64,000 nt of DNA from an uncultured virus (IMG/VR IMGVR_UViG_3300048442_000810) (taxonomy: Duplodnaviria > Heunggongvirae > Uroviricota > Caudoviricetes), in IMG/VR virus record IMGVR_UViG_3300048442_000810, one strand, 5' to 3'. The notes beneath the pieces were generated by a model. It had not been told where the DNA came from. It did no database searches and saw nothing but the letters and a program-made list of their open reading frames with translations. Both the position numbers and the translations under genes were made by a program. This document shows positions 472-60,527 of this stretch, piece by piece; position 1 is the first letter of the stretch, and each line of letters opens with the position of its first letter.

Positions 472-936
472 ATGGGTCAACCTTATATAATTGTAGTAGA
501 GAATACTACCAATAACCATATAGAAGATATAAAGCTATTCGATACTTTTAAAAACAATGGATTGCCTAATTACGGTTTGCCTCCCGGTGTTACTGTTACT
601 ATGGGAGTTCAAGGAGTTACCTACGGACAATTGCTATTTCAGAGTATGTCTATGCCCTTCCTTACTTCTTTGACTTATTTGAAAGCAGATTCTACTGAGC
701 AGGTAAATCAAACATTTAGTATTAAAGCTAAAGACACCAATGGAAATATGCAGAATATACCTTGTACTTCTGTTGTTAGTCCTTATCAACCTCAAGGAAA
801 TGTATTACAGGCTAGTTGTGAATATATAATTGATGGAAATACTGTTTTCATAATTAATAATTTATTGCCAAAAAGCAAGTTCAAAATTTATATTTATCCA
901 TCCAAAATAGCCAACATTTCTAACTCTTTTTTCTAA
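472..936 (+). CDS. Short paralog of the putative jelly-roll capsid protein (minor/second capsid protein candidate)
   Basis: Aligns by eye with 59778..60527: QPYII, GVTY..L.QS...PF...LTYL, D.NGN, PYQ.Q, DG.T, K.Y..PS; beta-strand rich; lacks the acidic N-terminal leader. Confidence 0.6.
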   Translation: MGQPYIIVVENTTNNHIEDIKLFDTFKNNGLPNYGLPPGVTVTMGVQGVTYGQLLFQSMSMPFLTSLTYLKADSTEQVNQTFSIKAKDTNGNMQNIPCTSVVSPYQPQGNVLQASCEYIIDGNTVFIINNLLPKSKFKIYIYPSKIANISNSFF

Positions 937-8500: not shown

Positions 8501-11500
8501 AACCGGTGCTCAGGGTACACAAGGTATTCAAGGTAGAATAGGAACTACAGGTTCTCAAGGAGCAACGGGAAGTCAAGGTACTCAAGGAATTCAAGGTAGA
8601 GGAGGTCCACAAGGTGCTACAGGTACACAAGGAACTACAGGTTCGCAAGGTACTACCGGAGCAACAGGAAGTCAAGGAGCCCAAGGAACAAAAGGAACGC
8701 AAGGTGCCACAGGTTCTCAAGGAATAAAAGGTGATACAGGAAGCCAAGGTACTCAAGGGCTTCAAGGTAGAGCAGGAAATACAGGTTCTCAGGGTGCAAC
8801 AGGTTCTCAGGGAACAACAGGAACTCAAGGTGCTACCGGAAGTCAAGGTGCTACCGGAAGTCAAGGAACTACGGGAACACAAGGAACTACGGGAACTCAA
8901 GGAGCAACAGGAACACAAGGTGCCACAGGTAGCCAAGGTAGAACAGGTGCTCAAGGAACTACGGGAACACAAGGAACAACAGGAACTCAAGGTGCCACCG
9001 GAACTCAGGGAACAACAGGAACTCAAGGTGCCACAGGTAGCCAAGGTGCTACAGGTGCTCAAGGGCAAAAAGGTGCACAAGGTGCTACAGGTTCGCAAGG
9101 AACTACAGGAACTCAAGGTGCAACAGGTAGTCAAGGTATAAAGGGTGCTCAAGGTGCCACAGGTGCTACCGGAAGTCAAGGAACTACGGGAACTCAAGGT
9201 GCTACCGGAAGTCAAGGAACTACGGGAACTCAAGGAGCAACAGGTTCTCAAGGTACTACAGGTAGCCAAGGTAGAACAGGTGCTCAAGGAACAACAGGAA
9301 CTCAAGGAACTACCGGAACACAGGGTATAAAAGGTGACACAGGTTCACAAGGTACGCAAGGATTACAAGGAAGAGCAGGAAATACAGGTTCGCAAGGTGC
9401 CACAGGAACACAAGGAACTACCGGAACTCAAGGAGCAACGGGTGCTCAAGGAACTACGGGTGCTCAGGGTTTAAAAGGTAATCAAGGTACTACAGGAGCA
9501 ACCGGTTCGCAAGGTGCTACAGGTGCTCAAGGAAGAACAGGTACAGGTGGTACACAAGGAACAACAGGTTCTCAGGGTGCAACAGGAAGCCAAGGTATAA
9601 AAGGTGCACAAGGAACAACCGGAACTCAAGGAACTACAGGTAGTCAAGGAACTCAAGGTATTCAAGGTATAAAAGGTAATATTGGTGGAACAGGTTCTCA
9701 AGGTGCTACAGGTGCTCAAGGTACTACAGGTTCACAAGGTACTAGAGGAACACAAGGAACAACCGGAACTCAAGGAACAACAGGAGCAACAGGAAGTCAA
9801 GGGGCACAAGGAACTAAAGGAACTCAAGGTGCTACCGGTTCTCAAGGAACAAAAGGCGATACAGGTTCTCAGGGAACTCAAGGGCTTCAAGGTAGAGCAG
9901 GAAATACAGGTTCAACAGGTTCACAGGGAGCCACAGGTTCACAGGGAACAACAGGTAGTCAAGGTACCACAGGTTCACAAGGGGCTACAGGTGCTCAAGG
10001 GCAAAGAGGTGTAACAGGTTTAACAGGTAGCCAAGGTGCTACGGGTGCTCAGGGTACAACAGGTAGCCAAGGTACGACAGGTTCGCAAGGAACAAAAGGC
10101 GATACAGGTAATACAGGGTCGCAAGGTGCTACAGGTGCTCAAGGAAGAACAGGTACAGGTGGTACACAAGGAACAACAGGTTCTCAGGGTGCAACAGGAA
10201 GTCAAGGTATAAAAGGTGCACAAGGAACAACCGGAACTACAGGTTCAACAGGTTCACAAGGTGCTACAGGTTCGCAAGGAACAAAAGGTGCTCAAGGTAC
10301 GACAGGAACTACAGGCTCTACAGGTTCTCAAGGTGCAACGGGTGCTCAAGGACAGAGAGGTGTAACAGGATTAACAGGTAGCCAAGGTGCCACAGGTAGC
10401 CAAGGTGCCACAGGTGCTCAGGGTACAACCGGAACTACAGGTTCAACAGGAAGCCAAGGAGCAACAGGTGCACAAGGACAAAGAGGTGTAACAGGTTTAA
10501 CGGGTAGCCAAGGTGCCACAGGTTCTCAGGGAACAACCGGAACTACAGGGGCAACAGGTAGTCAAGGGGCTACAGGTGCTCAAGGAAGAACAGGAACAAC
10601 CGGTTCAACAGGTAGCCAAGGTGCAACAGGTTCTCAAGGTACGACAGGAACTACAGGTTCAACAGGTTCGCAAGGGACAACAGGTGCAACAGGTAGCCAA
10701 GGTGCTACGGGTGCTCAAGGGCAAAGAGGTACTACCGGTTTAACAGGTTCTCAAGGAGCAACAGGTTCACAAGGAAGAACAGGAACTACAGGTTCAACAG
10801 GTTCGCAAGGAACTCAGGGACTTCAAGGATTAAAAGGTACGACAGGTAATACAGGTTCGCAAGGTGCTACGGGTGCACAAGGACAGAGAGGTGTAACAGG
10901 ATTAACAGGTTCGCAAGGTGCCACAGGTGCTCAGGGTACGACAGGTACAACCGGTAATACAGGTAGCCAAGGAGCAACAGGTTCTCAAGGAAGAACAGGA
11001 ACAACAGGTAATACAGGTAGTCAAGGTACGACAGGTGCAACAGGTAGCCAAGGAGCAACAGGTGCTCAAGGACAGAGAGGTACTACCGGTTTAACAGGGT
11101 CGCAAGGTGCTACAGGTTCGCAAGGAAGAACAGGAACTACAGGTTCTACAGGAAGCCAAGGAGCAACAGGTGCAACGGGTTCAACAGGTTCGCAAGGTAC
11201 TCAAGGATTAAAAGGAACTACAGGTTCCACAGGTTCTCAGGGTGCTACAGGAACAACAGGTTCAACAGGAAGCCAAGGTGCTACAGGTGCACAAGGAAGA
11301 ACAGGAACAACCGGTTCAACAGGTTCGCAGGGTACTCAAGGATTAAAAGGAAATACAGGAAATACAGGTAGCCAAGGTACAACCGGTGCTACGGGTGGAA
11401 CAGGTTCTCAAGGTGCTACAGGTGCACAAGGACAAAGAGGTACTACCGGTTTAACAGGTTCTCAAGGTACAACAGGTGCTACAGGTGGAACAGGTTCGAC

Positions 11501-12638
11501 AGGTAGCCAAGGTACTACGGGAGCCACAGGTGCACAAGGAAGAACAGGAACAACCGGTTCAACCGGTTCAACAGGTTCGCAGGGTACTCAAGGACTAAAA
11601 GGAAATACAGGAAATACAGGTAGCCAAGGTACAACCGGTGCTACGGGTGGAACAGGTTCTACAGGTTCGCAAGGTGCGACAGGTGCTCAGGGACAAAGAG
11701 GTACTACCGGTTTAACAGGGTCGCAAGGAGCAACAGGGTCGCAAGGAAGAACAGGAACAACCGGTTCAACAGGTAGCCAAGGAGCAACAGGTGCTACGGG
11801 TGGAACAGGTGGAACAGGTTCGCAAGGTACTCAAGGATTAAAAGGTAATACGGGTAATACAGGTTCAACAGGTTCTCAAGGAGCAACAGGTGCTACGGGT
11901 GGAACAGGTGGAACAGGTTCTCAAGGTGCAACAGGTTCGCAAGGAAGAACAGGAACAACCGGTTCAACAGGTTCGCAAGGAACTACAGGTGCTACGGGTG
12001 GAACAGGTGGAACAGGTTCTCAAGGTGCTACAGGTGCACAAGGACAAAGAGGTGTAACAGGATTAACAGGTTCGCAAGGAACTACAGGTACAACGGGGTC
12101 TACAGGTTCAACAGGAAGCCAAGGTACTACGGGTGCTACGGGTGGAACCGGTTCGCAAGGTGCACAAGGTAGGACAGGAACTACAGGTTCAACAGGAAGC
12201 CAAGGTGCTCAAGGATTAAAAGGTAATACGGGTGGAACAGGTTCTCAAGGAACTACAGGTGCAACGGGGTCTACAGGTTCAACAGGTTCTCAAGGAACTC
12301 AGGGACTTCAAGGAAGAACAGGTACAACCGGTAATACAGGTAGCCAAGGTGCAACAGGTTCTCAAGGTAGGACAGGTACGACAGGTACTCAGGGTAGGAC
12401 AGGTTCAACAGGTTCAACGGGTTCTCAAGGTTCTACAGGAACAACCGGAACACAAGGTTCTACAGGAGCAACAGGAGGTTCGCCTGTTTTTAGTAGTGCT
12501 AGTTCTACCTCACTCCAAAGAAATGGATTTAATACAAGTACACCTTCTGCTACAGGTCTTGCTCCGGCAGGTTGGATAATAGTTACTGCTAGTAATGGTA
12601 CAAGTTATTACTTACCTGCTTGGATATATGATAAATAA
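5553..12638 (+). CDS. Giant collagen-like fibre protein (2361 aa)
   Basis: About 2280 residues of Gly-X-Y ([12 protein letters not shown]); 52-aa C-terminal domain ending [20 protein letters not shown]. Confidence 0.92.
5617..12479 (+). repeat. Degenerate 9-bp-period coding repeat (Gly-X-Y triplets)
   Basis: GGN-NCN-CAA / GGN-NCN-ACA periodicity throughout; boundaries approximate. Confidence 0.9.
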
Positions 12639-25959: not shown

Positions 25960-27321
25960 TTACTCTTTTTCGATTGGGAAATCGTGCTTTTTGAATAATT
26001 TTCTTGCACCTTGCTCGGTATCAAGTTGATGCTGAACAAACTCCGGTGATGGTATAAATAGGTTTGTTCTTTGGAATGTACTTCCTACCATATCGAACTG
26101 AGGCATTTCCTCTACCTTTTCTTTTGAGAAGCAATCATAATTAATCATCATTTGCTTGATGTATATTAACTTTGATTTAATTTGGTCTTGCCATTTAGGA
26201 TTTTTTCCTGCATTTGAAGTAGATACCGCAGATACAGAATTTCCTGATTGATTAGAAAACTCTGATTTTGATGGTTTACCATCTTTTATCCATCTTAATT
26301 TTTCACTTAAATGCTTACTTCTTTTCATTAAGAAATCACAACCATACTTATCATATCCTTTTTCTAAACTATCTACGAAATCAGGAGTTATATAATCCTT
26401 GTTTAGTTTTGGTTGTTTTACTTTGGCAATCAAAGGAGTTGCTATATCTATATATACATAGTCTAGTATTAACCTTACCGTTGTTAAAGGAAGTAAATTA
26501 TATTTTATTTTCGTAAAACCATCGAGTATGTACCCTTTTCCTTTTGGTGTAATAATGTAATTTTGAGATTGATATGGGTCAATAGTCGGTGTAAGTACCT
26601 TTTGATATACTTTACCTGTAGCTAATGTTCTATCAAATAAAAACGGCTCTAATATTTGTTCTTGATTTTCAGAAAATATTTGAAAATTCTTTATGTCGTA
26701 TGTCCTCTGAATTGTACTATACAAAAAGTCGTTGTAAGGGAAATTAGAAGTAGATATTACAGAAATATTGGGATTTGAAGGCAAAGTAGGTGCTGCGGCT
26801 GATGCTGAAGGATATACTTGTATTGGTAGCCAAATTGCTCCTCCGGTTTGACCATTTAATAATATAGATTCTACCCCATAATTATACTGAGCAGTTGTAG
26901 CAATATTTTGTGCAGCTATATATGCAGGGTCTACAATAACTCTAATTACAAAACTTGTGGATTCAAGACCATAAGGTCCATCTACTGTCCATTGTCCTAT
27001 TACGGCAAATGGGTTAGCTGCATCATTTAAATATGTAACTAATTCAGCAGTAGATATATTTGATAATTTTGGGTCGGCAAGAGAACCAACTATAAATGTA
27101 CTACCATCTGCTCTAAAAATTCTTATTGACACAGAACCATTAGAGGCTACAAGTTTAGGATTCCACCAATCACCAAGAGTATATATAGGTGACCAATTAG
27201 ATTCAAAGTTCCAAACAGTTTCCGTGCTTGTATTGGGTGCACCTAAAGCTGAAGTTTCAAAAACTGAAAATTCTTGAACTTCTGTAGAATTATTTCTAAA
27301 ACTAAATACCGATGCATCCAT
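25960..27321 (-). CDS. Large paralog of the capsid candidate with an inserted domain (turret/penton candidate)
   Basis: Y.DFL, Q.LE, QK.LTPTIDPYQ.Q, DGFT shared with 59778..60527; about 150-aa insertion after the first strands; C-terminal extension containing FSNQSG. Confidence 0.6.
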   Translation of the reverse strand: MDASVFSFRNNSTEVQEFSVFETSALGAPNTSTETVWNFESNWSPIYTLGDWWNPKLVASNGSVSIRIFRADGSTFIVGSLADPKLSNISTAELVTYLNDAANPFAVIGQWTVDGPYGLESTSFVIRVIVDPAYIAAQNIATTAQYNYGVESILLNGQTGGAIWLPIQVYPSASAAAPTLPSNPNISVISTSNFPYNDFLYSTIQRTYDIKNFQIFSENQEQILEPFLFDRTLATGKVYQKVLTPTIDPYQSQNYIITPKGKGYILDGFTKIKYNLLPLTTVRLILDYVYIDIATPLIAKVKQPKLNKDYITPDFVDSLEKGYDKYGCDFLMKRSKHLSEKLRWIKDGKPSKSEFSNQSGNSVSAVSTSNAGKNPKWQDQIKSKLIYIKQMMINYDCFSKEKVEEMPQFDMVGSTFQRTNLFIPSPEFVQHQLDTEQGARKLFKKHDFPIEKE

Positions 27322-28534: not shown

Positions 28535-28699
28535 TTATTTTTTTGTTTTTTTGTTTTTCTCTGTTTTTTGGGCTTCTGCTACTTTAGATTTTATTGCTCC
28601 CGATAATCCTGTGTTTCCTTGAAATCCTTGATTTCCTATATTGCCTGAATTACCTGACCTTAAACCTAATCCTTTATTTGCTTTACCCGATAATCCCAT
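28535..28699 (-). CDS. 54-aa mini-collagen-like basic protein (not in ORF track)
   Basis: MGLSGKANKGLGLRS-GNS-GNI-GNQ-GFQ-GNT-GLS-GAI-K...; TAATG coupling with the upstream gene. Confidence 0.6.
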   Translation of the reverse strand: MGLSGKANKGLGLRSGNSGNIGNQGFQGNTGLSGAIKSKVAEAQKTEKNKKTKK

Positions 28700-29619
28700 T
28701 ATTTTCTTCCTAAAAATATGCCAAGAAGAATACCTGCTAAACCTCCTATTAACATTGAATTATCACCTTTTTTAGTAGAACTTTTATCCATCTTCTCTGC
28801 ATATTTATTGTCTTTGTCTACTTTTGCTTGAGTTTTAGCTTTATTTTTTTCATAATCAGATAAATCTTCCCATTCTTTATCAGAATATCCCCAATATTTT
28901 TTGGTATCAGAAACACTTAATTGACCTTTTTTCTTAACTTCTCCACCTTTTGCATATTTATTATCTTTTCTTCTGTAAAAATAATCTTGTGTATCTTTTA
29001 TGCCATAAGTATCAACATTATCAAACACACCTTTCTTTTCAAGTCGTTTTTCTATCATACTTGCACCTCTAAAAGTGTCTGAACTACCAACTACCTCTCC
29101 ATCATAACCACTATCTTTGTGAACAATGTATCTTTTGACTTTACCACCTTTTGCAAATTCAGAAAGAGGTTTATCAGGAAACATACGAGTTAAATTTTTA
29201 AGATGAGCATAAAACTTTTTATCTCTTTCATCTTTTAACCCTGTTGAAAATTCTAATTCATCTGCTAATTGGCTTGGTGTAAAATTGTTTGCTATCGCAT
29301 AATCATACATTCCCTGATAACCCTCTAATTCCTTTTTTACACTACCACCTTTTGCAAATCTCCCCATTTTTAATTCTCTTCCTTCTTTATAGTTTTCACC
29401 ATCAAACCATTTAGATATTTTCTCAATACCTTTTTGTAGTTTTTCTTTTAAATCTTCTATACTATCAAAAGTGAATTTGTCTTGTGTGTAATCTTCGTAA
29501 TTTCCTGTTCTGTGATAAGGTGCTTCCATATTTACATTACCGGTAAGAACTATAGTATGCTTACCATCAATACCTCTGCTATTATCAGGATTATAGTAAA
29601 ATACTTCTTGAAAACTCAT
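28699..29619 (-). CDS. KGG-linker polyprotein, C-terminal part with membrane anchor
   Basis: Three [FY]AKGG linkers; ends MLIGGLAGILLGIFLGRK; overlaps 29591..31174 out of frame. Confidence 0.75.
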   Translation of the reverse strand: MSFQEVFYYNPDNSRGIDGKHTIVLTGNVNMEAPYHRTGNYEDYTQDKFTFDSIEDLKEKLQKGIEKISKWFDGENYKEGRELKMGRFAKGGSVKKELEGYQGMYDYAIANNFTPSQLADELEFSTGLKDERDKKFYAHLKNLTRMFPDKPLSEFAKGGKVKRYIVHKDSGYDGEVVGSSDTFRGASMIEKRLEKKGVFDNVDTYGIKDTQDYFYRRKDNKYAKGGEVKKKGQLSVSDTKKYWGYSDKEWEDLSDYEKNKAKTQAKVDKDNKYAEKMDKSSTKKGDNSMLIGGLAGILLGIFLGRK

Positions 29620-31174
29620 CTAAATCTTCTGCCTCATCCATATATCCTGCATCCTGTAAAGAAGAGTAATCAACATTTTCAATACCTCCTAATTCTTTTA
29701 CTATGTCAGGATATTCTTCTTCAAATCTTTCTTTACCATATTCATAATTTAGATTTTCTACTCTTTCTAATTCAGCATCTAAAGTATTTGTAGGCAATGA
29801 TTTTCCTGAGCCTGTTAGATAGTTTCCGTATGTGAAAAAACGGTATTCATAGCCTCCATCAGTAAAAGGTATAAAGCCATCTCGACTCTTATATTCTACC
29901 TCTTCTCCTTTTATTTCTTGACCTTCATATTCTTGATTAGCATCTTCTAAAACATCTTCTAACTCATCTTTTAATACCTCAACTATTTTTTCTCTACTTA
30001 TAGTTTCTCCACCCTCGGCAAACCCTTGAGGGAATTTAGAACTATATATTTCATCGTTATATCGAGATGCATTATCAACTACTCTTACCCAAGTATTAGA
30101 ATCTTCTATTTCTCTTGCTTTTGATATTGCTCTTTTTTTATTTGGTGCCTCATCATCTAAATACACTACATCGTAGTTTTCATCAAAATCATAATCATCT
30201 TCGTTGTTGTAAACTCTAATAATATATTCTTTGTTTTCATCTAAATCTCCACCTTTTTCAAAACTTCTAATCACGAAAATATCTCCATCATTAGACTTGT
30301 ATTTCATTTTAGGAAAATACTTTTGTTTAGCTTCTTCAAAATTATCTCTATTCTGTCTTTCTGAATCAACAAAAATCACTTTATAATTATCTCCTGCTAA
30401 TACTTTTATTTCTTCTACATCATAATCATAATCTCCTCCGGACTGCCAATCATCTCCGAACTTTTGCTTTGCTAAATCAATTAAACCGTTTTCACTAACA
30501 AAATCATCTGTTGATGTGTAATTTCCACTTAAATCCTTTCCTAAACTGCCACCTTTTGCATATTTAGATAAATCGTATTCTTTTACTGTTCCTCCCTTTT
30601 TATAGTTTTGAAAATAATGTCCATCATATTCGTTATAATTGTTTATTGATAAATCTCTTCCCAAAGCCTCATAGTCAAAATAATATTCAGGATTTGAAAC
30701 ACCTTCAATACCTCCTACATTATCAACATAATTTTCTCCTAATTCGTAATCCCCATCATATTGTCCTATATATCTATCATCTACAAATTCCTCTAAATTA
30801 TCAGGGCTAAAATCATTTGCTATGGATTGTAATACTTCAGCAGGAATTCCTTTTTCTTCTGATATTTTATGAGTATCAATAATAATATCATAATCTGCCT
30901 CTCCCATATACTCACTATATAGGCTGCTATCAAAATTTTCGTAGTCGTGAATTGAGTGCTCAGTTTCTTCTCCGTTATGATACTTCTTGCTATATTCTTT
31001 CATAAGAGAAGCAATTTTATCGCTAACTTCTTCTCCACTATCATAATCAGTTAAATCAACCCACTCACCAACTAACCTACCTTCATTATAAGATTTTAAG
31101 TCTGCAACATAAATTTTTGGAGTATCATCTTTAAATTCTCCTCCTTTATTATATTTATATTTTTTCATTTCCAT
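29591..31174 (-). CDS. ardA: KGG-linker polyprotein, N-terminal part containing an ArdA anti-restriction domain
   Basis: IYVADL..YNEG.LVGEW...IHDYE...YFDYEALGRDL (ArdA signatures), flanked by YNKGG and YKKGG; three further linkers. Confidence 0.8.
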   Translation of the reverse strand: MEMKKYKYNKGGEFKDDTPKIYVADLKSYNEGRLVGEWVDLTDYDSGEEVSDKIASLMKEYSKKYHNGEETEHSIHDYENFDSSLYSEYMGEADYDIIIDTHKISEEKGIPAEVLQSIANDFSPDNLEEFVDDRYIGQYDGDYELGENYVDNVGGIEGVSNPEYYFDYEALGRDLSINNYNEYDGHYFQNYKKGGTVKEYDLSKYAKGGSLGKDLSGNYTSTDDFVSENGLIDLAKQKFGDDWQSGGDYDYDVEEIKVLAGDNYKVIFVDSERQNRDNFEEAKQKYFPKMKYKSNDGDIFVIRSFEKGGDLDENKEYIIRVYNNEDDYDFDENYDVVYLDDEAPNKKRAISKAREIEDSNTWVRVVDNASRYNDEIYSSKFPQGFAEGGETISREKIVEVLKDELEDVLEDANQEYEGQEIKGEEVEYKSRDGFIPFTDGGYEYRFFTYGNYLTGSGKSLPTNTLDAELERVENLNYEYGKERFEEEYPDIVKELGGIENVDYSSLQDAGYMDEAEDLDEFSRSILL

Positions 31175-32071: not shown

Positions 32072-32737
32072 TTAATTCATAATTCTAACATCATATATAT
32101 TCTGATTGGCGGCTATTATTCTTCTATTAACCTCATCCCAATTTATAATTTTAAATATATTTTTGATGTATTTCGTTCTGTCTGCATCGTATTTCAAATA
32201 ATATGCGTGTTCCCACACATCTACTCCTAATAAAGGATATGATTGATACTCAGGCATATATGGATTGTCTTGATAAGGGGTAGCTAGTATATTTGTACTG
32301 CCATCTCTATTCATTACCCACCATACCCATCCTGAGCCGAATCTTTTCTGCGATGCTTCAATAATAAATTCTTTAAATTGTCCGTAAGTACCAAAGTCTT
32401 GAATAATTTTAGCCAATGAAACACCGTGTGGTGGATTTGACTTTTTTGATGGATTAGGTTTAAGCATTTTCCAAAACATAGAATGATTTACATACCCTCC
32501 TCCATTATCTCTAATTTCAATTGGGTATCTATCTATGTTCTGCATTACTCTAATAACCGGGTCAGTAATATCATATTTGTCTACTGCTGCGTTAAACTTT
32601 TTTAAATACCCTAAATAATGTTTATTGTAGTGTATTTGCATAGTTTCCTCATCAATATATGGCTCTAAACCGTTATATTTATAAGGAAGCCTTACAGGAG
32701 AAAAATGTATTAAATCATAGTCATCATATTTATTCAT
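32072..32737 (-). CDS. sod: Fe/Mn superoxide dismutase
   Basis: LPY.Y..LEPYI..ETM..H..KH, NH..FW, FGSGW.W, DVWEHAYY. Confidence 0.95.
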   Translation of the reverse strand: MNKYDDYDLIHFSPVRLPYKYNGLEPYIDEETMQIHYNKHYLGYLKKFNAAVDKYDITDPVIRVMQNIDRYPIEIRDNGGGYVNHSMFWKMLKPNPSKKSNPPHGVSLAKIIQDFGTYGQFKEFIIEASQKRFGSGWVWWVMNRDGSTNILATPYQDNPYMPEYQSYPLLGVDVWEHAYYLKYDADRTKYIKNIFKIINWDEVNRRIIAANQNIYDVRIMN

Positions 32738-33166
32738 TTTCAAACTTTTTATTGCGTGTTAAGTTGCGTGTGGTAACATACGAACCTCTGAACAAAGCAA
32801 AAGAACCAATTACACACACGACTAACAAAGCACTTAGAACAACTTTATTATTCACTTATTACTTACACTTATAGATTAAGTAACCTAACATTCCAATGAT
32901 AATTACATTGTGAACATTGTTACCACCTAAAAAATCTGCACTTTTAATATCAAACATTTTTTTTAAATTTTTGGGTTAATACTCGTTTTATTTACTCTCC
33001 TGCAAGTTATATTTTTTAATGAGATTTTTAGCGATAGTTTGTAACTTCTTTTTATCGGCTCTTGCAGGTGGGAGATTGTCGTTAGTAATATTAAGTTTAG
33101 ACTCTTGCATACTTGCAATTGTATATTTTAAATTCTTAACGATTTCTCTTGCCCTATTTACACTCA

Positions 33167-36605: not shown

Positions 36606-37169
36606 TTATTTATTTCTGTTTCTTAACATATATGCTATAGCTAGTGCTCCTGCTACTGCTACTCCAAAAATTAGGAGGTTATTAGTTGTTTTAGCTTTTT
36701 CTTCCGCCATATCTCTTGACAGTATCATATCGGTTTGTGCTTTACCTAATTCTATAGCAATTTGTTTTCTTGCGTTTAACTCTGCTAGTTCTCTATAGAA
36801 TCTTTTATCTTCCTTGTCATACTGCTCTTGCCTTCTTGCCATATCACGACCAAAAGCTGCGTTTTTAGCACCTATAAATATACCTGCTACTGATTGTGCA
36901 ACTGCTGAAACTGCCGTTGCAATACCTACTAAAAGTGTAGCTGCTATATTAGAGAATCTTCCCTCCTCTACCTTGCTTTGAAAAATTATTATTCTAGCAA
37001 TAAAATCTTCATCTAGCATATGATATGCTACTGCTTTATTTACTTCATCTACAGGAGTATTAACAGGCAACTCAGCATAACCATTCTCATTAAGCCATTG
37101 AATTACCAAAACTTTATGGTCAAGAATGAATCCGGCTAAACCCTTAAATGCTAAATTATTTGTTTTCAT
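36606..37169 (-). CDS. Prodomain + hydrophobic peptide + coiled coil + TM protein
   Basis: FSN then IAATLLVGIATAVSAVA, charged helix, C-terminal TM; paralog of 37169..37726. Confidence 0.7.
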   Translation of the reverse strand: MKTNNLAFKGLAGFILDHKVLVIQWLNENGYAELPVNTPVDEVNKAVAYHMLDEDFIARIIIFQSKVEEGRFSNIAATLLVGIATAVSAVAQSVAGIFIGAKNAAFGRDMARRQEQYDKEDKRFYRELAELNARKQIAIELGKAQTDMILSRDMAEEKAKTTNNLLIFGVAVAGALAIAYMLRNRNK

Positions 37170-37726
37170 TATTTCATTATTTTTATCGCTATATATACAA
37201 CTACTCCACCTGCTAATGCTATATATAATGAATTCATTCTCGTATTTTCTCTATTTTTTTGTATCAAATTTTCTTCTTGTTGTAGATAATCTGATTGTGC
37301 TAAAAGAAATTGTTTTTGCATTTCTTTTCTTTGTAAAAATGCTATTTCATCTCTTGTTTCTTTATTTAAATACCTAGACCTAAAACCTTCTCTAAATATT
37401 TCTTCACGCATTTTTTTGTTTCTGCGTATATCTTGTTGTACCGCAATTCCTGCCGTTACAACTAATAAACTTCCTATTATCCAAGCAGCCGTTGCAGTTA
37501 GAGTAAAAATTGCATTTTTATATTCATTTTCTTCAGTAGCTATTTCCATCAATCCGTTTTGTAACTCTTTATTGGTTGAGTTATCAATAACTACTTCATT
37601 TACACTTGCAATAGGTGCATTTAAAGGCAGCGATGCTATCCTTAACCTATTGATTAGGGATATTACATCATTTTTATTTTGCAGTAAAAAAACTGCTAAA
37701 TTAGATATTGCCTTTTCTTTGTTCAT
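37169..37726 (-). CDS. Prodomain + hydrophobic peptide + coiled coil + TM protein
   Basis: YKN then AIFTLTATAAWIIGSLLVV, charged helix, C-terminal TM. Confidence 0.7.
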   Translation of the reverse strand: MNKEKAISNLAVFLLQNKNDVISLINRLRIASLPLNAPIASVNEVVIDNSTNKELQNGLMEIATEENEYKNAIFTLTATAAWIIGSLLVVTAGIAVQQDIRRNKKMREEIFREGFRSRYLNKETRDEIAFLQRKEMQKQFLLAQSDYLQQEENLIQKNRENTRMNSLYIALAGGVVVYIAIKIMK

Positions 37727-37727
37727 T

Positions 37728-38225
37728 TTATACTGTTGCAGGTTTCTTTTTTAATGCTACATATGCTACCACTCCTATAACTAATGCCCCAACTCCTAAA
37801 GCAACATAGGTTAATGTTTTATCTTCTGTTTTTCTTGCAGCACTTTTCAAATTTGCTTCTTGAAACATTTTTTCAATATTAGCATCAAATTCTGCTGCTT
37901 GTTCATCTAATTTTTTCTGAGAACAGTCTAGTTCATCCCATTTATTTTTAAAGTCTAATCTTCTATTTTCTAAGGCTCTTGAATTTCTTGTGATTACTCT
38001 GTCTTTAGCACCACTATTAGCATTTTTAGTCAAATCCTTATCAATAACACCAATAGTATCATCAATGGTATCACAATCCATCTCATCTTCTAACTTGTAC
38101 TTATCGTTATATCTGTCTACTGCCTTGTTATATCTTTCTTTTTCTGCTTTTTTAGGTGCAAAAAAATCCTTGAACCAAGTTCCTCCTATAAATCCGGGGT
38201 GATTAAACCATAATTCTTCTTGCAT
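37728..38225 (-). CDS. Tail-anchored helical protein, NHPGF family
   Basis: LWFNHPGFIGGTWFKD; paralog of 53866..54459 and 55912..56601. Confidence 0.7.
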   Translation of the reverse strand: MQEELWFNHPGFIGGTWFKDFFAPKKAEKERYNKAVDRYNDKYKLEDEMDCDTIDDTIGVIDKDLTKNANSGAKDRVITRNSRALENRRLDFKNKWDELDCSQKKLDEQAAEFDANIEKMFQEANLKSAARKTEDKTLTYVALGVGALVIGVVAYVALKKKPATV

Positions 38226-38229
38226 AATT

Positions 38230-38451
38230 TTATTTTTTTAATTTACTATATATTATTATTGCTACTATCGCAAGAGATATTCCTCCTACTAATTTTAAAA
38301 CTGCACTTCCAATACTATTATCTTCTTCTTTAAATTCATCTATGCTTCCAACTGCATTAGAGTAATTTTCTTGTTTACATTTACCTCCGCACTTACATTC
38401 ACCTCCATTTTGGCAAGGGTGATACTCTTTATTTTTGCATCCACAACTCAT
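38230..38451 (-). CDS. Tail-anchored protein with Cys-rich (metallothionein-like) N-terminus
   Basis: 6 Cys in 25 aa, YSNAVG, C-terminal TM. Confidence 0.65.
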   Translation of the reverse strand: MSCGCKNKEYHPCQNGGECKCGGKCKQENYSNAVGSIDEFKEEDNSIGSAVLKLVGGISLAIVAIIIYSKLKK

Positions 38452-40718
38452 TACTTTCTTCCTAAAAATATACCAAGAAGAATACCTGCAATTCCTCCTA
38501 TCAGCATTGTGTTATGCTCTTCATTTCCTTTTTTCTTTACCTCTCCACCTTTTGCATAACCTCTTTCAGCTTTTATTTCTTCAATAGCATCTTGATATGT
38601 TTCATCCGTAGGAGTTCCATCTTCATTATATCCATCAAGTTCAGGATGTTTTTCAAGCCATTCTATTATTTCTTGATGTGATATTTCTCCACCTTTTGCA
38701 AAATCTTCTTTATCAAGTTCTAATGCCTCTAATAATTCTTCTTTAGTGTTTATGGGTGTCGGTGTATTCATAGAATTTCCTAACCATATTTCATAAAGTT
38801 CTTCTCTTGATGGGTTGTTTTCAAGAACTTCCTCTATGTGCGAAACATCAATACCATCATTATTCATATCATCTATATACATACGAACTATCTCCTCACT
38901 ATTTACATTATCCCAATCTCCCTCGCCCTTATCTTGTAAATAATCATAAAATTCTCCAAAAGACATATCCTTAATAGAGCCACCTTTAGCAAAGTCCAAT
39001 TTAGGTGTCCACTCTACTACTTTATATTGAATAGAACTACTCATTCTTTGCAGTTTATTTTTTTCGTCTTGAGCATCTTTGTATGATAGATATTTTTTGC
39101 CACCCGTTAAAAACTTCTCATCTTTCCATTTTGGAACTCCTAAATCATATTTACTTTTTTCTTGAATTTTGTAAATCTTTCCTTGTGTTTTACCACCTTT
39201 AGCAAATCTGTTTTTTTCTTCTACATATTTTAAACCTTGATTAGATAGTTTATATTCTCCTTTATTTATTAATCTTGCCCAATTTTCAGCTTCTTTTTTT
39301 GTTTTATAAGAAGGGTTTGAGTATGTACTTCCATATTTTTTTAAGTAGTATTTTCCGTTAGTTCCATAAACAGATACTTCCCCACCTTTTGCAAAAGTTT
39401 CTAAATTTTTAACCATTGCTTCAACTCTTCTTCCATTTGTTGCTTCAACTATTGCCACACCCCCATCATCTCCATCTGCTCTTAATTTTATTATTTCTTC
39501 TACTTTACCACTTTGTCCTTTTCCCATACCACTTATTGAATGTGGGAAATTGTCTTTTGTTGCTCTAACCACATCTCCTACTTCAATTTTACCACCTTTA
39601 GCATAAGATTGAACACCATCTTCATCTACTTCCCAAAGATAACCTTGTTGACTCATAATTTGAGATTTATATGCACCATCTTCAATACTTGAAAGTGCAA
39701 TTTCTAATGCCTCACTATATGTTTTTACTTCTTTATCTAAACTTGGCTTATTGCTATTGTATCTTGCTTTACTTTTCCAAACCTCAACTGAAAAAGGACT
39801 ATCTTTTTTAGGCTCTACTTCGCCACCTTTTGCGAACTCTAATTTCTCTTTTTTATAGACTTCATATGGAAATAAAAATTGAGCAGAATACAACTTCATT
39901 TCACCTTTTTTCCAAAGTTCTATTTCTTTTTCAGTAGGTGCAGAAAACTCATCCCAATCACTACCTTTTTCGTGCTTTACAAGAGCACTTGTTTGAATAG
40001 TATCTTCATCAACATAAAAATCCTCTTCTTTCATATCTGCGTATGAAACAAAATCATTTAAAGTTTCAAATAAATCTTTTTTATTAGTAAACTTAGTTTT
40101 ATATGGAAAATCATTTTCACCTAAGTAATATGAATGAAATTGGTCTTGCTCTCCCTCTTCATAAGAATCTTCGTAAAAAGTAACATCAGCACCCTTTATT
40201 TGGTATGTTTTTCCAACTTCCCCACCTTTTGCATAATCTTCGTGTTCTATTCCAAAATTATCATAATCCTCAATATCGTTTTTACTATCTATTAAGCCCT
40301 CTGATTCTTCGCTAATGTTTATTCCATAAATCTCTATTTTATCCCAATTTTTCTCTGCAAACGACTTGCTTACTTCTTGAAATTTATATCCATCAGAGAA
40401 TGTTATAAAACCGCCTTTAGCAAATTTTGCTTTTTGTTTCTTAGCATCTTGAACGGTTTTGTATATGCCTCCTAAATCTTTCTTGATGTCTTTAATTTTG
40501 TTCTCTCTGTCCTTAATAGATTTCTTTTCTCTATCAATGCCACTTTCTAAATTATTAATTTGATTTTCGGAACTTGTAATATCTTTACGAATGCTTTTTA
40601 TCTCATCTCTACCTTCATTGATTTCTTTATCGCCTTTTTTAGCAACATTACCCATAGCTTTAGCAAGTTCAATTTGACCTCCTCTTTCGTAACTATTATT
40701 TCTATTTCCTCTTTTCAT
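38451..40718 (-). CDS. KGG-linker polyprotein (755 aa) with membrane anchor
   Basis: Nine [FY]AKGG plus one YERGG separating unrelated modules of about 45-130 aa; ends MLIGGIAGILLGIFLGRK. Confidence 0.8.
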   Translation of the reverse strand: MKRGNRNNSYERGGQIELAKAMGNVAKKGDKEINEGRDEIKSIRKDITSSENQINNLESGIDREKKSIKDRENKIKDIKKDLGGIYKTVQDAKKQKAKFAKGGFITFSDGYKFQEVSKSFAEKNWDKIEIYGINISEESEGLIDSKNDIEDYDNFGIEHEDYAKGGEVGKTYQIKGADVTFYEDSYEEGEQDQFHSYYLGENDFPYKTKFTNKKDLFETLNDFVSYADMKEEDFYVDEDTIQTSALVKHEKGSDWDEFSAPTEKEIELWKKGEMKLYSAQFLFPYEVYKKEKLEFAKGGEVEPKKDSPFSVEVWKSKARYNSNKPSLDKEVKTYSEALEIALSSIEDGAYKSQIMSQQGYLWEVDEDGVQSYAKGGKIEVGDVVRATKDNFPHSISGMGKGQSGKVEEIIKLRADGDDGGVAIVEATNGRRVEAMVKNLETFAKGGEVSVYGTNGKYYLKKYGSTYSNPSYKTKKEAENWARLINKGEYKLSNQGLKYVEEKNRFAKGGKTQGKIYKIQEKSKYDLGVPKWKDEKFLTGGKKYLSYKDAQDEKNKLQRMSSSIQYKVVEWTPKLDFAKGGSIKDMSFGEFYDYLQDKGEGDWDNVNSEEIVRMYIDDMNNDGIDVSHIEEVLENNPSREELYEIWLGNSMNTPTPINTKEELLEALELDKEDFAKGGEISHQEIIEWLEKHPELDGYNEDGTPTDETYQDAIEEIKAERGYAKGGEVKKKGNEEHNTMLIGGIAGILLGIFLGRK

Positions 40719-40720
40719 AA

Positions 40721-41758
40721 TTATCTTCCTATAAAAAATGCACCAAGTAAAATACCTGCTATCCCTCCTACAAGTAAAGTTTGATTATTATTATCTTCAG
40801 TATTATCAACTTTTTTTGCTTCTACTTTTTCAATTTTATCATCACATTTATCTTTAGTGATAGTTGCTTTTCTTAAAGCACCTTTTTCCTTCTTTAGTTT
40901 AGCAATTTCTTTGTCTTTTTCTCTTCTTAGCTTAACATATCTATCTCTGTCAATTTTACCTTCAACAGAGCCTCCACGAGCCATTTTTATTTTCTCTATG
41001 CTTCTAACTCCATTTGCAAGTTGCTCTCCTTTGTTAAAATCTTCAATAGATTTATAATTAGTTTCAAAACCTTCATTATGCTCATTAATAAATTCCATAG
41101 CTTCTGATTTTGTTAGATATTCAGTAGCATCTTCATCATCAGATTCACGATATACATATCCACCTTTAGCCATTTTTCTTTTGCCTTTATCCATTGTAGA
41201 TACATCAGCATACTTTCTTCTACCCATAGATTTTTCCATTCCTGCACTTTCTCTCATTCTACTGTCTAAAGATTGAGATTTTTTTCCTCTGTTTCTTTCT
41301 CCTATGCTTTCTCTATCTCTGTCATCATAACCCTGAGTTTTTCCACCTTCCATAAACATTCTATCGCCTTTGTCCATAGTGTCTACACTTGAATATGCTC
41401 TACGACCTAGATTTTTATTAGCTGCTTTGCTTTCATCTCTTCGGTCTTTTAATGTTTGTGTATAATTGCTTTCTCTTCCAAGTCTAGTTCCTAAATCTTC
41501 ATTTAACTTGTCGTTATACCCTTGTGGTTTATCGGTTTCTCCTCCTTTAGCCATCTTTTTCTTATTTGCTATTTGTTGCATATTTAAAGCAAATTGTGCT
41601 CTTTCACGAGTTCTTTCTGAAAAGTCAGTTGGATTATCTTTTACTTTTTTAGCAAAATCTTGAACGGACATACCTGCATCAGTAGCTTGTTTAGTAAACG
41701 CACCAACAGTTCCTTTTTTTTCCATTTCTTTATCTACATTTTGAATCCAATCTGCCAT
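40721..41758 (-). CDS. KGG-linker polyprotein (345 aa) with membrane anchor
   Basis: MAKGG x2, FMEGG, MARGG; two paralogous QGY.D...TMDKG modules; ends LLVGGIAGILLGAFFIGR. Confidence 0.8.
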   Translation of the reverse strand: MADWIQNVDKEMEKKGTVGAFTKQATDAGMSVQDFAKKVKDNPTDFSERTRERAQFALNMQQIANKKKMAKGGETDKPQGYNDKLNEDLGTRLGRESNYTQTLKDRRDESKAANKNLGRRAYSSVDTMDKGDRMFMEGGKTQGYDDRDRESIGERNRGKKSQSLDSRMRESAGMEKSMGRRKYADVSTMDKGKRKMAKGGYVYRESDDEDATEYLTKSEAMEFINEHNEGFETNYKSIEDFNKGEQLANGVRSIEKIKMARGGSVEGKIDRDRYVKLRREKDKEIAKLKKEKGALRKATITKDKCDDKIEKVEAKKVDNTEDNNNQTLLVGGIAGILLGAFFIGR

Positions 41759-57164: not shown

Positions 57165-57995
57165 TTATTTACTTGCTCTCAAATTAGGTGTACTATTCTG
57201 AGTGCAAAATTTATTTCTTTCAAAATTTGTTATAAACTGATTTAAAATGTCAAATCTTTCTTTATTTTGAGGTGTTGGAGTGTCCTTAAATGTTGTAAGG
57301 AAACTTTGATAAGCCTCTATTCTTGGATAACCAAGAGCCAAATAAATTAATAATCCATTCAAATCTGCTTCTGTTTCATCTTCCATATTCTCATTCAAAT
57401 AAAAATGAGAAAACTCGTGTAATAGAATTGCCATTCTCATTGGAACAGTAAACTTTTTATAGTGTGCTTTGCTTACTTGTATAATTCCTTTTGACTGACT
57501 AATTCTTGCAGGGGTTTGTATTACCAAACCTCTTTTTGTTCTAATATCATCAAAGTAATCTATTCTAAAATTACCCTCATCTGAGATATATGTGCTTCCG
57601 TTTGGAAACTTTCCTGCACTTAATATTCCTGCGTTGTCTGAAAATTGTTGAGCAAAATTTGCAAAATCTCTTATTTTTGGATTACTCCAATCAACACAAT
57701 CCATTTTTCTTTCTAATGGTCTAGCATCTATTTTTACAACTTTAAATGATGCATCTTGACCCTTTTTCAAATTACCGTTAGCTTTATTATATACACTTAT
57801 AAGTGCTTCATAAGGAGATAAAGGCATTCTAACGAAGAATCTTTGCTTACCATCAATAGTTGCATATCTATTAGTATAATCAGTATTAGGCTTATTAATA
57901 TCCTTAACTACTATCTGAATTTTTTGAGGACTATTTGTTACGACCTCTATCATAATAGTTAACGATTTTTGCTTTGTTTTAAATAAAATATTCAT
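57165..57995 (-). CDS. HEXXH zinc metalloprotease (maturation protease candidate)
   Basis: ILLHEFSH followed by ETEAD third-ligand motif. Confidence 0.7.
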   Translation of the reverse strand: MNILFKTKQKSLTIMIEVVTNSPQKIQIVVKDINKPNTDYTNRYATIDGKQRFFVRMPLSPYEALISVYNKANGNLKKGQDASFKVVKIDARPLERKMDCVDWSNPKIRDFANFAQQFSDNAGILSAGKFPNGSTYISDEGNFRIDYFDDIRTKRGLVIQTPARISQSKGIIQVSKAHYKKFTVPMRMAILLHEFSHFYLNENMEDETEADLNGLLIYLALGYPRIEAYQSFLTTFKDTPTPQNKERFDILNQFITNFERNKFCTQNSTPNLRASK

Positions 57996-58443: not shown

Positions 58444-59142
58444 CTAATTTTGTACTGCCGGTGATGAACTTCCTTTTCTGCTATTATATAAAGCAAAACC
58501 TATAACTGCTAAAACCCCAACACCTAATAAAATAAATACAACTTTGCTAGAGCCTCCTAAACCTGCTTGAGTTGGCGGTAATACAGTTTGATTTGCACCT
58601 AATTCCATTTGCTGCAACATCAAATCTCTATTCATTCCTGCAAGTTCCAATTCGTGAGCCCTTTGCTTTCCTGCTTCTTTATAACTTTTATTTCCTTGCC
58701 AAATACCTGCAACTGTAGATAAGACTTGAATTCCTCCGTTTAACCATTGTCCGCCTGTTACTCCTGCACCTGTACTTGCTGATGGAGCAGGAACTCCTCC
58801 TACTTGATTCATAAATCCATCTCTACTAGCATCCGTGTCCATTGGACTAATTTCTTCTGCACCTTCAATAAATGGCAATTGATTAGCTAAAACTAATTTC
58901 ATAATTCCAATCCTTACACATTCACTTGTTAAATTGTATGCTACTGCCGTAACTAATTCAACTTTTCCTGCTCGTGAAGAAACTTTCACACCACAGTTAA
59001 TAAGTGTTTTTCGTACTAAAGCCGGTCTACCCTCTATCACTTTAGCAACTTCGGATAACATTAACTCTCTCGTTATAGCCATATCTTTTGTTTTATTTAT
59101 TGCTTTAAAATTTTCTTTAAAATTATGATGCTCATATCTCAT
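58444..59142 (-). CDS. Prodomain + Gly-rich/amphipathic peptide + coiled coil + TM protein
   Basis: FMNQVG, then WLNGGIQVLSTVAGIW, C-terminal TM. Confidence 0.65.
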   Translation of the reverse strand: MRYEHHNFKENFKAINKTKDMAITRELMLSEVAKVIEGRPALVRKTLINCGVKVSSRAGKVELVTAVAYNLTSECVRIGIMKLVLANQLPFIEGAEEISPMDTDASRDGFMNQVGGVPAPSASTGAGVTGGQWLNGGIQVLSTVAGIWQGNKSYKEAGKQRAHELELAGMNRDLMLQQMELGANQTVLPPTQAGLGGSSKVVFILLGVGVLAVIGFALYNSRKGSSSPAVQN

Positions 59143-59777: not shown

Positions 59778-60527
59778 TTAACCCTGTAATGCACGAGCAA
59801 CTCCTTGACCAAGAACAATCTTGTCTTGTCTTACAACATTTGGATTACCATAACCACGAGCAATTGAATTGCCTGTTAGAGCACGACCTTGAGAAACAGT
59901 TTCAGATGGGAACAAGTAGACTTTTAAAGTCGCTTTTGCTGCAATACTGTTAACTGTTAATGTAGTAAAGCCATCCCACTTATAGGTATGCTTTAATACA
60001 GTAATGTCTGTTTGGTTTTGGTAAGGGTCAATTGTAGGAACAAGAGTTTTTTGTTGTTGATTACCATTAGAGTCAACTACTTTTACTACGATAGTTTCTA
60101 GGACCTGTGTTGAGCCTCCATCACTTTGTAGGTAAGTTAATCCAACCACGAATGGTTTAGATGAACTTTGCCATAAAAATTCAAGATAAGTTACACCTGA
60201 AATAGCCATATTATATAGGATATTTGCCGTGTTACCTGCTTCACCTGCCGGAATACCTCCACCTGCTGCGATTGCGGTTACCTTAGTTATCGTGTTATAT
60301 GCTCCACCAATTTCAACAGATGCTACATCTGCTGCCGTAGAGTTATATAATGAGATAATGTAAGGTTGTGATGAACTAGCATCAGCCGAACCCATTGCGT
60401 TTAAGTATTCTTCTTCAGAACCACCAAAGTCAAAAGCATCATCCCAATCATTTACACCATTAGCTGACATAAATTCGTTTGAAATGTTTTCTTCTGCATC
60501 AGAGAAATAACGGTTTAAATTTTCCAT
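59778..60527 (-). CDS. Putative major capsid protein (single jelly-roll-like) with acidic leader
   Basis: Beta-rich core of about 165 aa with two paralogs in the window; long leader and own terminator suggest high expression; 2.3 kb from the packaging ATPase. Confidence 0.6.
   Translation of the reverse strand: MENLNRYFSDAEENISNEFMSANGVNDWDDAFDFGGSEEEYLNAMGSADASSSQPYIISLYNSTAADVASVEIGGAYNTITKVTAIAAGGGIPAGEAGNTANILYNMAISGVTYLEFLWQSSSKPFVVGLTYLQSDGGSTQVLETIVVKVVDSNGNQQQKTLVPTIDPYQNQTDITVLKHTYKWDGFTTLTVNSIAAKATLKVYLFPSETVSQGRALTGNSIARGYGNPNVVRQDKIVLGQGVARALQG

Follow-up and report, generated by a model that had tools for sequence, protein, structure and literature searches.

The two tandem genes 36606 and 37169 of an uncultured virus encode proteins of one layout: a four-helix N-domain of about 68 aa, a [YF]-x-N motif, a hydrophobic segment of 27 residues, a helical stalk of about 65 aa and a transmembrane (TM) helix. 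Genes are named here by their first coordinate in the window, i.e. the whole 64-kb stretch of viral DNA that was analysed (Table 1). We tentatively propose that both proteins are precursors of cleavage-primed, membrane-anchored pilot or penetration proteins, which would act like the podophage protein gp14 and not like a haemagglutinin. That the N-domain, the cap in this model, becomes separated from the remainder of the protein is probable.

The virus itself appears to be tailless and to possess an internal membrane. In its window small membrane proteins form a long block on the minus strand, and there are also genes for a capsid candidate (59778), peptidoglycan enzymes, RecT and an ATPase (62810) with weak HerA/AAA matches (Pfam DUF87, E 9e-4; PHROG terminase, E 2e-4). 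A search with the HExxH gene led to relatives at 71 IMG/VR loci and on 12 contigs in bins of mixed phyla. Near-identical contigs reach about 92 kb, and about a quarter of the virus lies outside the window. When 129 ORFs of 110–1200 aa, 84 of 86 in one complete relative and 45 of 72 in another, were compared with Pfam, no portal or tail family was found, nor any Cys or Ser protease family; the only peptidases were the cell-wall types M15 and M23. Among cultured phages no relatives of the ATPase were detected, and a search of viral_contigs with the capsid protein or with alignment A1 likewise yielded none. A search of the open-access literature yielded no paper that deals with this virus group, with a capped pilot protein or with a link between cupins and ejection.

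Several further genes of the window deserve mention in their own right. A protein of 2361 aa with Gly-x-Gln/Thr repeats (5553–12638; collagen-like) is a probable fibre, and an Fe/Mn superoxide dismutase (32072–32743; Pfam E 1e-32) lies within the virion gene block. Four TM-tailed multi-domain proteins (28699–29619, 29591–31174, 38451–40718 and 40721–41758), one of which carries an ArdA antirestriction domain (Pfam E 2e-23), have their domains spaced by [FY]-x-KGG repeats. These repeats occur nine times in the virion module at an expectation of 0.4, and distant loci are without such enrichment; they may be read as a second, lineage-specific processing or packaging code. The otherwise unrelated ORFs 43405, 50168, 43873, 47945 and 55584, several of which have no TM segment, share C-terminal aromatic/acidic tags of the WFND/FGDY type, which look like a packaging tag.

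Architecture of the two paralogs

Both genes are located on the minus strand and share one base in a stop/start overlap. Their products are paralogous, with an identity of 24% over 178 aa (E 4e-8). The AlphaFold2 model of 36606, computed from a 35-row alignment, shows four confident helices at residues 2–69 (pLDDT 78–96 over residues 11–70), a motif region at 71–80 with pLDDT below 50, a helix at 77–112 and another one at 120–185 which runs into the TM segment. FSN in 36606 and YKN in 37169 each stand directly before a run of 27 residues free of D, E, K and R. This direct succession, noted in a preliminary description of the window, holds for the two window proteins but not for the family as a whole, since polar inserts, the longest about 25 aa, occur at this place in several homologs. 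The C-terminal segment is TM-grade in all 27 homologs of the 36606 type and in all 21 of the 37169 type.

Pfam (at E 0.01), PHROGs and NCBIfam contained no significant match for 36606, 37169 or 58444, and a profile search of the PDB sequences gave no match at E 10. With the model of 36606 nothing usable was returned by Foldseek against the PDB (best E 1.1), by the BFVD search (best E 0.5) or by the wide search of VIA (best Z 5.1, rmsd 4.2, 92 aligned), and the ESM Atlas returned only unnamed clusters.

Table 1. Coordinates of the features discussed in the text (window positions, except for the last line)
Feature	Position	Strand	Remarks
Paralog A, 187 aa	36606..37169	-	N-domain, FSN, amphipathic-hydrophobic helix, helical stalk, C-terminal TM, basic tail
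Paralog A, four-helix N-domain, aa 2-69	36963..37166	-	putative removable prodomain; AF2, family HMM
Paralog A, FSN motif, aa 72-74	36948..36956	-	putative P3-P1 of cut site; low-confidence loop
Paralog A, uncharged Ala/Gly/Ser/Thr-rich amphipathic segment of 27 aa, aa 75-101	36867..36947	-	putative new N-terminus
Paralog A, charged helical stalk, aa 102-163	36681..36866	-	no clear heptad repeat
Paralog A, C-terminal transmembrane helix, aa 165-183	36621..36677	-	
Paralog B, 185 aa	37169..37726	-	N-domain, YKN, TM-grade segment, stalk, TM
Paralog B, N-domain	37529-37723	-	
Paralog B, YKN, aa 69-71	37514-37522	-	
Paralog B, TM-grade hydrophobic segment	37433-37513	-	
Paralog B, stalk	37232-37432	-	
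Paralog B, TM	37178-37231	-	
NHPG-family membrane protein	37728..38225	-	members also 46508, 53866, 55912; motif present, long hydrophobic peptide absent; regarded as a family of its own
Conserved HExxH protein, candidate maturation protease	57165..57995	-	N-terminal beta-sandwich and M48-like zinc-peptidase domain
Distant paralog adjoining capsid gene	58444..59142	-	N-domain 58879-59079, FMN 58807-58815, polar spacer, TM
Amphipathic helix of 58444	about 58690-58755	-	no peptide directly after motif
Capsid-protein candidate	59778..60527	-	same motif in N-terminal arm; alignment
Orthologs of 37169 with Cys pair, examples	L016:1855-2403, L009:9444-9992, L033:9433-9981		

The hydrophobic segments of the two families are of different character. 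That of the 37169 type is TM-grade in 21 out of 21 homologs, with an approximate dG of at most 1.5 and a low hydrophobic moment (median 0.10), dG being here our own Gaussian-weighted use of a biological hydrophobicity scale and valid only for comparing segments with each other. The segment of the 36606 type is mostly sub-TM (2 of 27 homologs TM-grade) and amphipathic, with a median moment of 0.32 and a periodicity of about 100 degrees. The preliminary description would have been refuted by an ordinary second TM segment in an uncleaved protein; this is unlikely for 36606 with its 2 of 27, but less so for 37169, whose segment is TM-grade in every homolog. One may ask if the proteins, at least 37169, are ordinary uncleaved two-TM membrane proteins. 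The lack of the motif Asn in 10 of the 21 homologs of 37169 also fits this explanation, but the segment of 36606 and the existence of cap-less homologs (see below) do not. In both window families the median net charge is -1/-2 before the segment and +2 after it. As TM orientation is governed by flanking charge through the positive-inside rule, a two-TM topology would require the export of a folded N-domain without a signal, and indeed no hydrophobic (signal) segment precedes residue 73 in 36606 or 37169. We consider such a topology quite unlikely. In many orthologs of 37169 a Cys pair (CxxxC or CxxxxC) opens the hydrophobic segment; the window copy is without it.

Class I fusogens include influenza HA2, HIV gp41 and Ebola GP2, and it was to this class that the window proteins had initially been likened, with a coiled coil between peptide and TM. 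The loose resemblance persists: the order of cap, motif, hydrophobic peptide, helix and TM was confirmed, and 36606 is predicted to be all-helical with a C-terminal TM, class I ectodomains being mainly alpha-helical and TM-anchored. The peptide would come to lie at the new N-terminus if the predicted cut occurs, which agrees with a brief definition of the class (PMC7830690). Fusion of the inner membrane with the host outer membrane has been suggested for PM2 (PMC6356626), and for the lambda spanin a resemblance to type I fusion proteins has been stated (PMC6381117). The coiled coil, however, was not confirmed. Residues 120–163 lack heptad periodicity, their peak lying near 84 degrees, and no periodicity of about 100–103 degrees, as expected for heptads, was found over residues 102–163; the best a/d hydrophobic fraction for 120–163, 0.54 versus 0.33, amounts to a weak bias. 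Furthermore, peptide and TM are only 63–75 aa apart, and the break predicted at 113–119 leaves about 11 helical residues after the peptide versus about 45 before the TM, so that folding back at this point would not bring the two together. The stalk is thus without heptads, and its small length and uneven helices do not suit a trimer of hairpins; class I membership is unsupported. A trimer prediction for residues 75–187 of 36606 (three copies, 35-row alignment) scored 0.00 and counts neither way. The missing heptads and the helix geometry, together with the missing signal segment and with pore-forming ejection proteins as the closest contextual analogs, make a true class I fusogen very unlikely.

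The motif, the distant paralogs and a candidate protease

Taken alone, the pattern [FWY]xN lacks specificity. It occurs 79 times versus 53 expected in 50 ORFs of the virion module, and since 24 non-virion ORFs are equally enriched (51 versus 33), we rejected its enrichment as evidence. It is the position that is conserved. Among 87 full-length family representatives (70% identity clusters, after exclusion of five truncated or TM-less rows and of all rows under 165 aa) 58 have the motif at most 30 aa beyond the end of the N-domain, compared to 11.7 in 1000 shuffles (maximum 23), with the consensus [YF]-[SAK]-N-[AFVI]-x-G. It is retained in 22 of 27 distinct homologs of 36606 and in 11 of 21 homologs of 37169.

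If this is a cut site, the residue at P1 would be Asn and that at P1' most often Ala (18 of 58) or Phe (10 of 58). This recalls the nodavirus gamma peptide, as flock house virus cleaves itself at Asn363-Ala364 and thereby frees an amphipathic lytic peptide (PMC8046363), and the same product might here arise through Asn-dependent self-cleavage during particle maturation instead of through a protease. We hold this to be highly improbable. Some homologs have Gln, Glu, Gly, Ser, His or yet other residues in place of the Asn, the occurrence of the motif in many unrelated folds suits an enzyme acting in trans, and a putative zincin is conserved in the block.

This putative zincin, 57165, was found to have 1661 homologs; in 58 rows H193, E194, H197, E207 and E209 are invariant. 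The Foldseek matches of its AF2 model (pLDDT 89.9) fell mainly on the beta-sandwich, and neither Pfam nor NCBIfam contained a match for it. Residues 124–260 align with the M48-family peptidase BepA (6sar) at the middling score of Z 8.1 (rmsd 4.7, 119 aligned) and with 3c37 at Z 6.3 (rmsd 4.1, 116 aligned). Located beside the capsid gene, 57165 is the best candidate for the cutting enzyme.

The capsid candidate 59778 has an arm of about 50 aa and a core of about 180 aa, a size nearer to a single than to a double jelly roll, and its arm bears [FY]xNA in 44 of 62 distant homologs. For its fold we obtained no PDB match, a probability of 0.1 with the PM2 P2 profile and Atlas values below 0.8. Two further capsid-like paralogs, at 472–936 (plus strand) and 25960–27321 (minus strand), share its PYQ motif, and the capsid may use several proteins of single-barrel size.

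A looser third member of the family had been proposed in 58444. Its N-domain is indeed homologous: the iterated profile, which collected 133 of 3048 distinct ORFs, 58444 among them, and no reversed decoy, recognizes it at E 5e-10 (no reversed decoys at E<0.01; BLAST E 0.88). No peptide, however, directly follows its motif: FMN at residue 110 is succeeded by about 20 polar residues, and the best segment has an approximate dG of 7.5, far from TM-grade. Proteins of this type have no TM-grade segment after the motif, only an amphipathic helix beyond a long polar linker. Similarly, NHPG is present in all four ORFs named for the NHPG family, but the uncharged run after its Asn has a median of 10 residues (range 5–14, 29 ORFs), and the downstream domain has 49 distant homologs, all of them without NHPG. 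These proteins were therefore rejected as fusion-peptide proteins. As 58444 and the NHPG proteins differ after the motif, the originally described architecture is limited to 36606 and 37169.

In most loci the paralog of the 58444 type is located two genes from the capsid gene. It is fused in seven loci, split into an N-domain ORF and a helix-stalk-TM ORF in 15, and elsewhere represented only by the helix-stalk-TM ORF. The C-parts of split and fused forms are homologous (HH 98%), and the split state requires at least three changes on a quick tree. Read-through of a stop codon was rejected as the basis of the splitting, the junctions occurring in all three relative frames with spacers of 2–15 nt and with 14 TAA and one TAG as stops. 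At the junction the motif is found in six of seven fused versus one of 14 split forms. After fission the N-domain persists as a stand-alone ORF of 69–75 aa (L038:8218–8436 and 14 similar loci), and it therefore likely still works in trans.

An alternative which has to be taken seriously, though we regard it as somewhat unlikely, is that 36606 and 37169 are structural membrane scaffolds like P3 and P6 of PM2. The amphipathic helix would then lie on the surface of the viral membrane and [YF]-x-N-x-x-G would be a docking or packaging tag by which membrane proteins are brought into register with the capsid; trimming would be possible, with no role in entry. P3 and P6 have been suggested to template the registration of capsomers (PMC6356626), and the layout of P3, with helix, linker, TM and basic tail, is comparable. 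The motif is found in the capsid arm and in many unrelated small membrane proteins, it is tandemly repeated within some linkers, and it survives in short leaders without N-domain (6 of 16, and 4 of 6 in another count). Its persistence without the N-domain and its tandem repeats agree with docking no less than with cutting. The capsid-adjacent 58444-type paralog with its mere amphipathic helix points in the same direction. However, P3 is not significantly similar: homology was rejected at E 8.6–17 with the C-terminal profiles of the 58444 type, and P3 gave no N-domain match. The scaffold explanation also leaves unexplained the loss of the motif from split junctions, the cap-less forms which start at the peptide, and a partner gene which precedes podophage ejection proteins.

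Cap-less relatives, a cupin-like gene and podophage ejection proteins

A tandem gene pair in complete freshwater records matches the 36606/37169 profile (E 2.5e-10 to 2e-4); the best full-length HMM matches, at E 2.5e-10 to 1.6e-9, come from three complete records. In 12 distinct sequences the first gene of this pair includes the N-domain; in 11 others it is cap-less, and its start Met stands at the hydrophobic peptide. When the mature parts without TM of the window proteins and of the cap-less forms were compared, HH probabilities were 8–72%, with 0.6–11% for reversed controls. As the mature parts reach only these values, orthology to the cap-less forms rests on the N-domain, the length, the spacing and the tandem arrangement.

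Cap and partner gene exclude each other. A gene of about 160 aa is located directly upstream in 11 out of 11 cap-less versus none of eight capped loci. Over whole records it occurs in 12 of 12 cap-less ones, in none of 12 capped ones (seven of them at least 90% complete) and in none of seven others; from the window it is absent. We call it cupin-like by its motif and by a weak match to 8awp (E 0.28). On the virus tree the states of cap and cupin-like gene change five times, at least four of these changes being forced by supported branches, compared to only one or two changes when the tree is built from the mature part. The anti-correlation may therefore reflect one or two inventions which were spread by exchange, and we read the two trees as suggesting a cassette that took the place of the capped form in several lineages and was not invented many times.

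A match to the mature part exists in eight of the 15 relatives that are at least 90% complete, with five having no match and two the N-domain only, in a search which is insensitive and, given the marine profile, missed a known member (G002). A presence in only eight of 15 is odd for an essential entry protein.

The cupin-like gene matches PHROG 12032/24280 (E to 4e-31; PHA00672-type) and has homologs in 62 phage records. In nine out of nine distinct phages inspected, the following gene codes for an N-terminal uncharged run of 18–29 aa that consists to 53–73% of A, G, S and T. Such a run is also present in 11 of 11 cap-less homologs, at a background of 25 in 3048 ORFs, and in the window proteins it becomes N-terminal only after the predicted cut. 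In RSB3 the cupin-like homolog is located between the tail genes and ORF40, a protein of the T7 gp14 family (PF24072, E 1e-24). The gene after it is annotated as "DNA ejection" in VvAW1, RSK1 and VPMS1, in H4/4 a short protein and then the head-tail adaptor follow, and in the remaining phages inspected the following gene is unnamed. The family PHROG 12032/24280 (L143:1010–1492 and the phage loci L166–L174) is labelled "short tail fiber", but it looks cupin-like and stands before proteins with a hydrophobic N-terminus, ejection proteins among them; the label is probably wrong.

The connection is one of design and gene context. No significant sequence match connects the cap-less forms with ejection proteins: in PHROG they reached E 0.007–0.07, their own HMM reached RSB3 ORF40 at E 0.08, and tblastn found no match. 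When mature and split forms were compared with PHROG, all matches had E>0.001. The window proteins gave no match to the PF24072 profile.

Proposed mode of entry and comparison with known systems

We propose that 36606 and 37169 are made as precursors with a four-helix cap, their C-terminal TM anchor most likely sitting in the virus's own membrane. During maturation the M48-like zincin would cut after [YF]-x-N, a code that recurs in the capsid arm and in other membrane proteins. The product would be a free Ala/Gly/Ser/Thr-rich N-terminus on a helical stalk of about 65 aa, the design of the podophage first ejection proteins as judged from sequence design and gene context, not from homology. Upon infection the peptide would insert into the host outer membrane, tether the viral membrane and start a pore or a lipid-protein conduit for the DNA. 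The cap would prevent early insertion of the peptide, a task that in the cap-less relatives may fall to the cupin-like protein. As these relatives start at the peptide and resemble podophage first-injection proteins, the window proteins are probably entry proteins and not true fusogens of the influenza or HIV type.

The removable cap gains support from the conserved position of the motif, the disordered loop, the cap-less and split homologs, the exclusion by the cupin-like gene and the conserved zincin. The initial suggestion of a cleavage-activated penetration or DNA-delivery protein is strengthened indirectly by the prodomain-less homologs, the cupin exclusion and the zincin, but it does not extend to 58444 and the NHPG proteins. 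Against the pilot model count the distant link to the cap-less forms, the TM anchor so unlike the internal gp14, the absence of Asn from 10 of 21 homologs of 37169, and the middling Z of the protease match. The widest scenario, in which a large family of tailless bacterial viruses enters by a zincin-primed, membrane-anchored protein whose podophage-type peptide draws the viral membrane to the host outer membrane and fuses the two, with a cap interchangeable with a cupin-like chaperone, is unlikely. If true, a bacterial virus would have arrived convergently at a class I-like fusogen, and ejection in tailed phages would be connected with entry in tailless ones.

For the breaching of the outer membrane by PM2-like tailless phages, fusion has been suggested in a review (PMC6356626); the protein for it is not known to have been identified. 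With 36606 and 37169 there are now concrete candidates, for which site and enzyme of a cut are predicted and naturally "pre-cut" versions exist. The alternation of cap and cupin-like gene further offers a role to the "short tail fiber" family of podophages, the shielding or modifying of a hydrophobic N-terminus, and points to an entry-peptide module common to phages with and without tails.

Among known systems, the first ejection proteins of podophages (the T7 gp14 family PF24072; RSB3 ORF40, VvAW1 gp03, RSK1 ORF14) share with our proteins the A/G/S/T-rich N-terminus followed by a basic/polar helix and, in the case of the cap-less homologs, the upstream partner gene. T7-type gp14 proteins are internal core proteins packed in the capsid, and gp14 goes to the outer membrane of the host, where it makes a pore (PMC8954989). 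The window proteins differ in their mature size of about 110 aa, in the C-terminal TM anchor and in having an N-terminal cap with motif in place of the partner gene. Furthermore, where T7-type phages have large ejection genes like those of gp15 and gp16, the downstream genes are here small membrane proteins, in an apparently tailless virus. P22 gp7 is likewise an ejection protein trimmed at its N-terminus by a protease, but this is the host enzyme OpdA, which removes 20 residues, and deletion leaves about 60% of the burst (PMC8402733), so that the trimming there is no activation switch.

In the flock house virus gamma peptide, too, cleavage after Asn, which is predicted here, frees an amphipathic helix needed for membrane penetration; unlike in our proteins, it is autocatalytic, and the peptide stems from the capsid protein of an animal RNA virus and is released instead of being TM-anchored (PMC8046363). 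The P3 and P6 proteins of PM2 (Corticoviridae) are likewise small virion membrane proteins with an amphipathic helix and a C-terminal TM with basic tail, but they are without the N-domain and significant similarity, and a role in assembly is ascribed to them. Fusogens described for prokaryotic systems include a protein of phi6, HRPV VP5, a monomer with a fold of its own, and the spanins (PMC6381117, PMC6356626, PMC7830690). With the class I fusogens, finally, 36606 and 37169 share a helical stalk and a C-terminal TM, and a predicted priming cut would in addition expose an N-terminal hydrophobic peptide; they differ from them in heptads, signal segment, spacing and helix balance, as described above, and in not being known envelope proteins.
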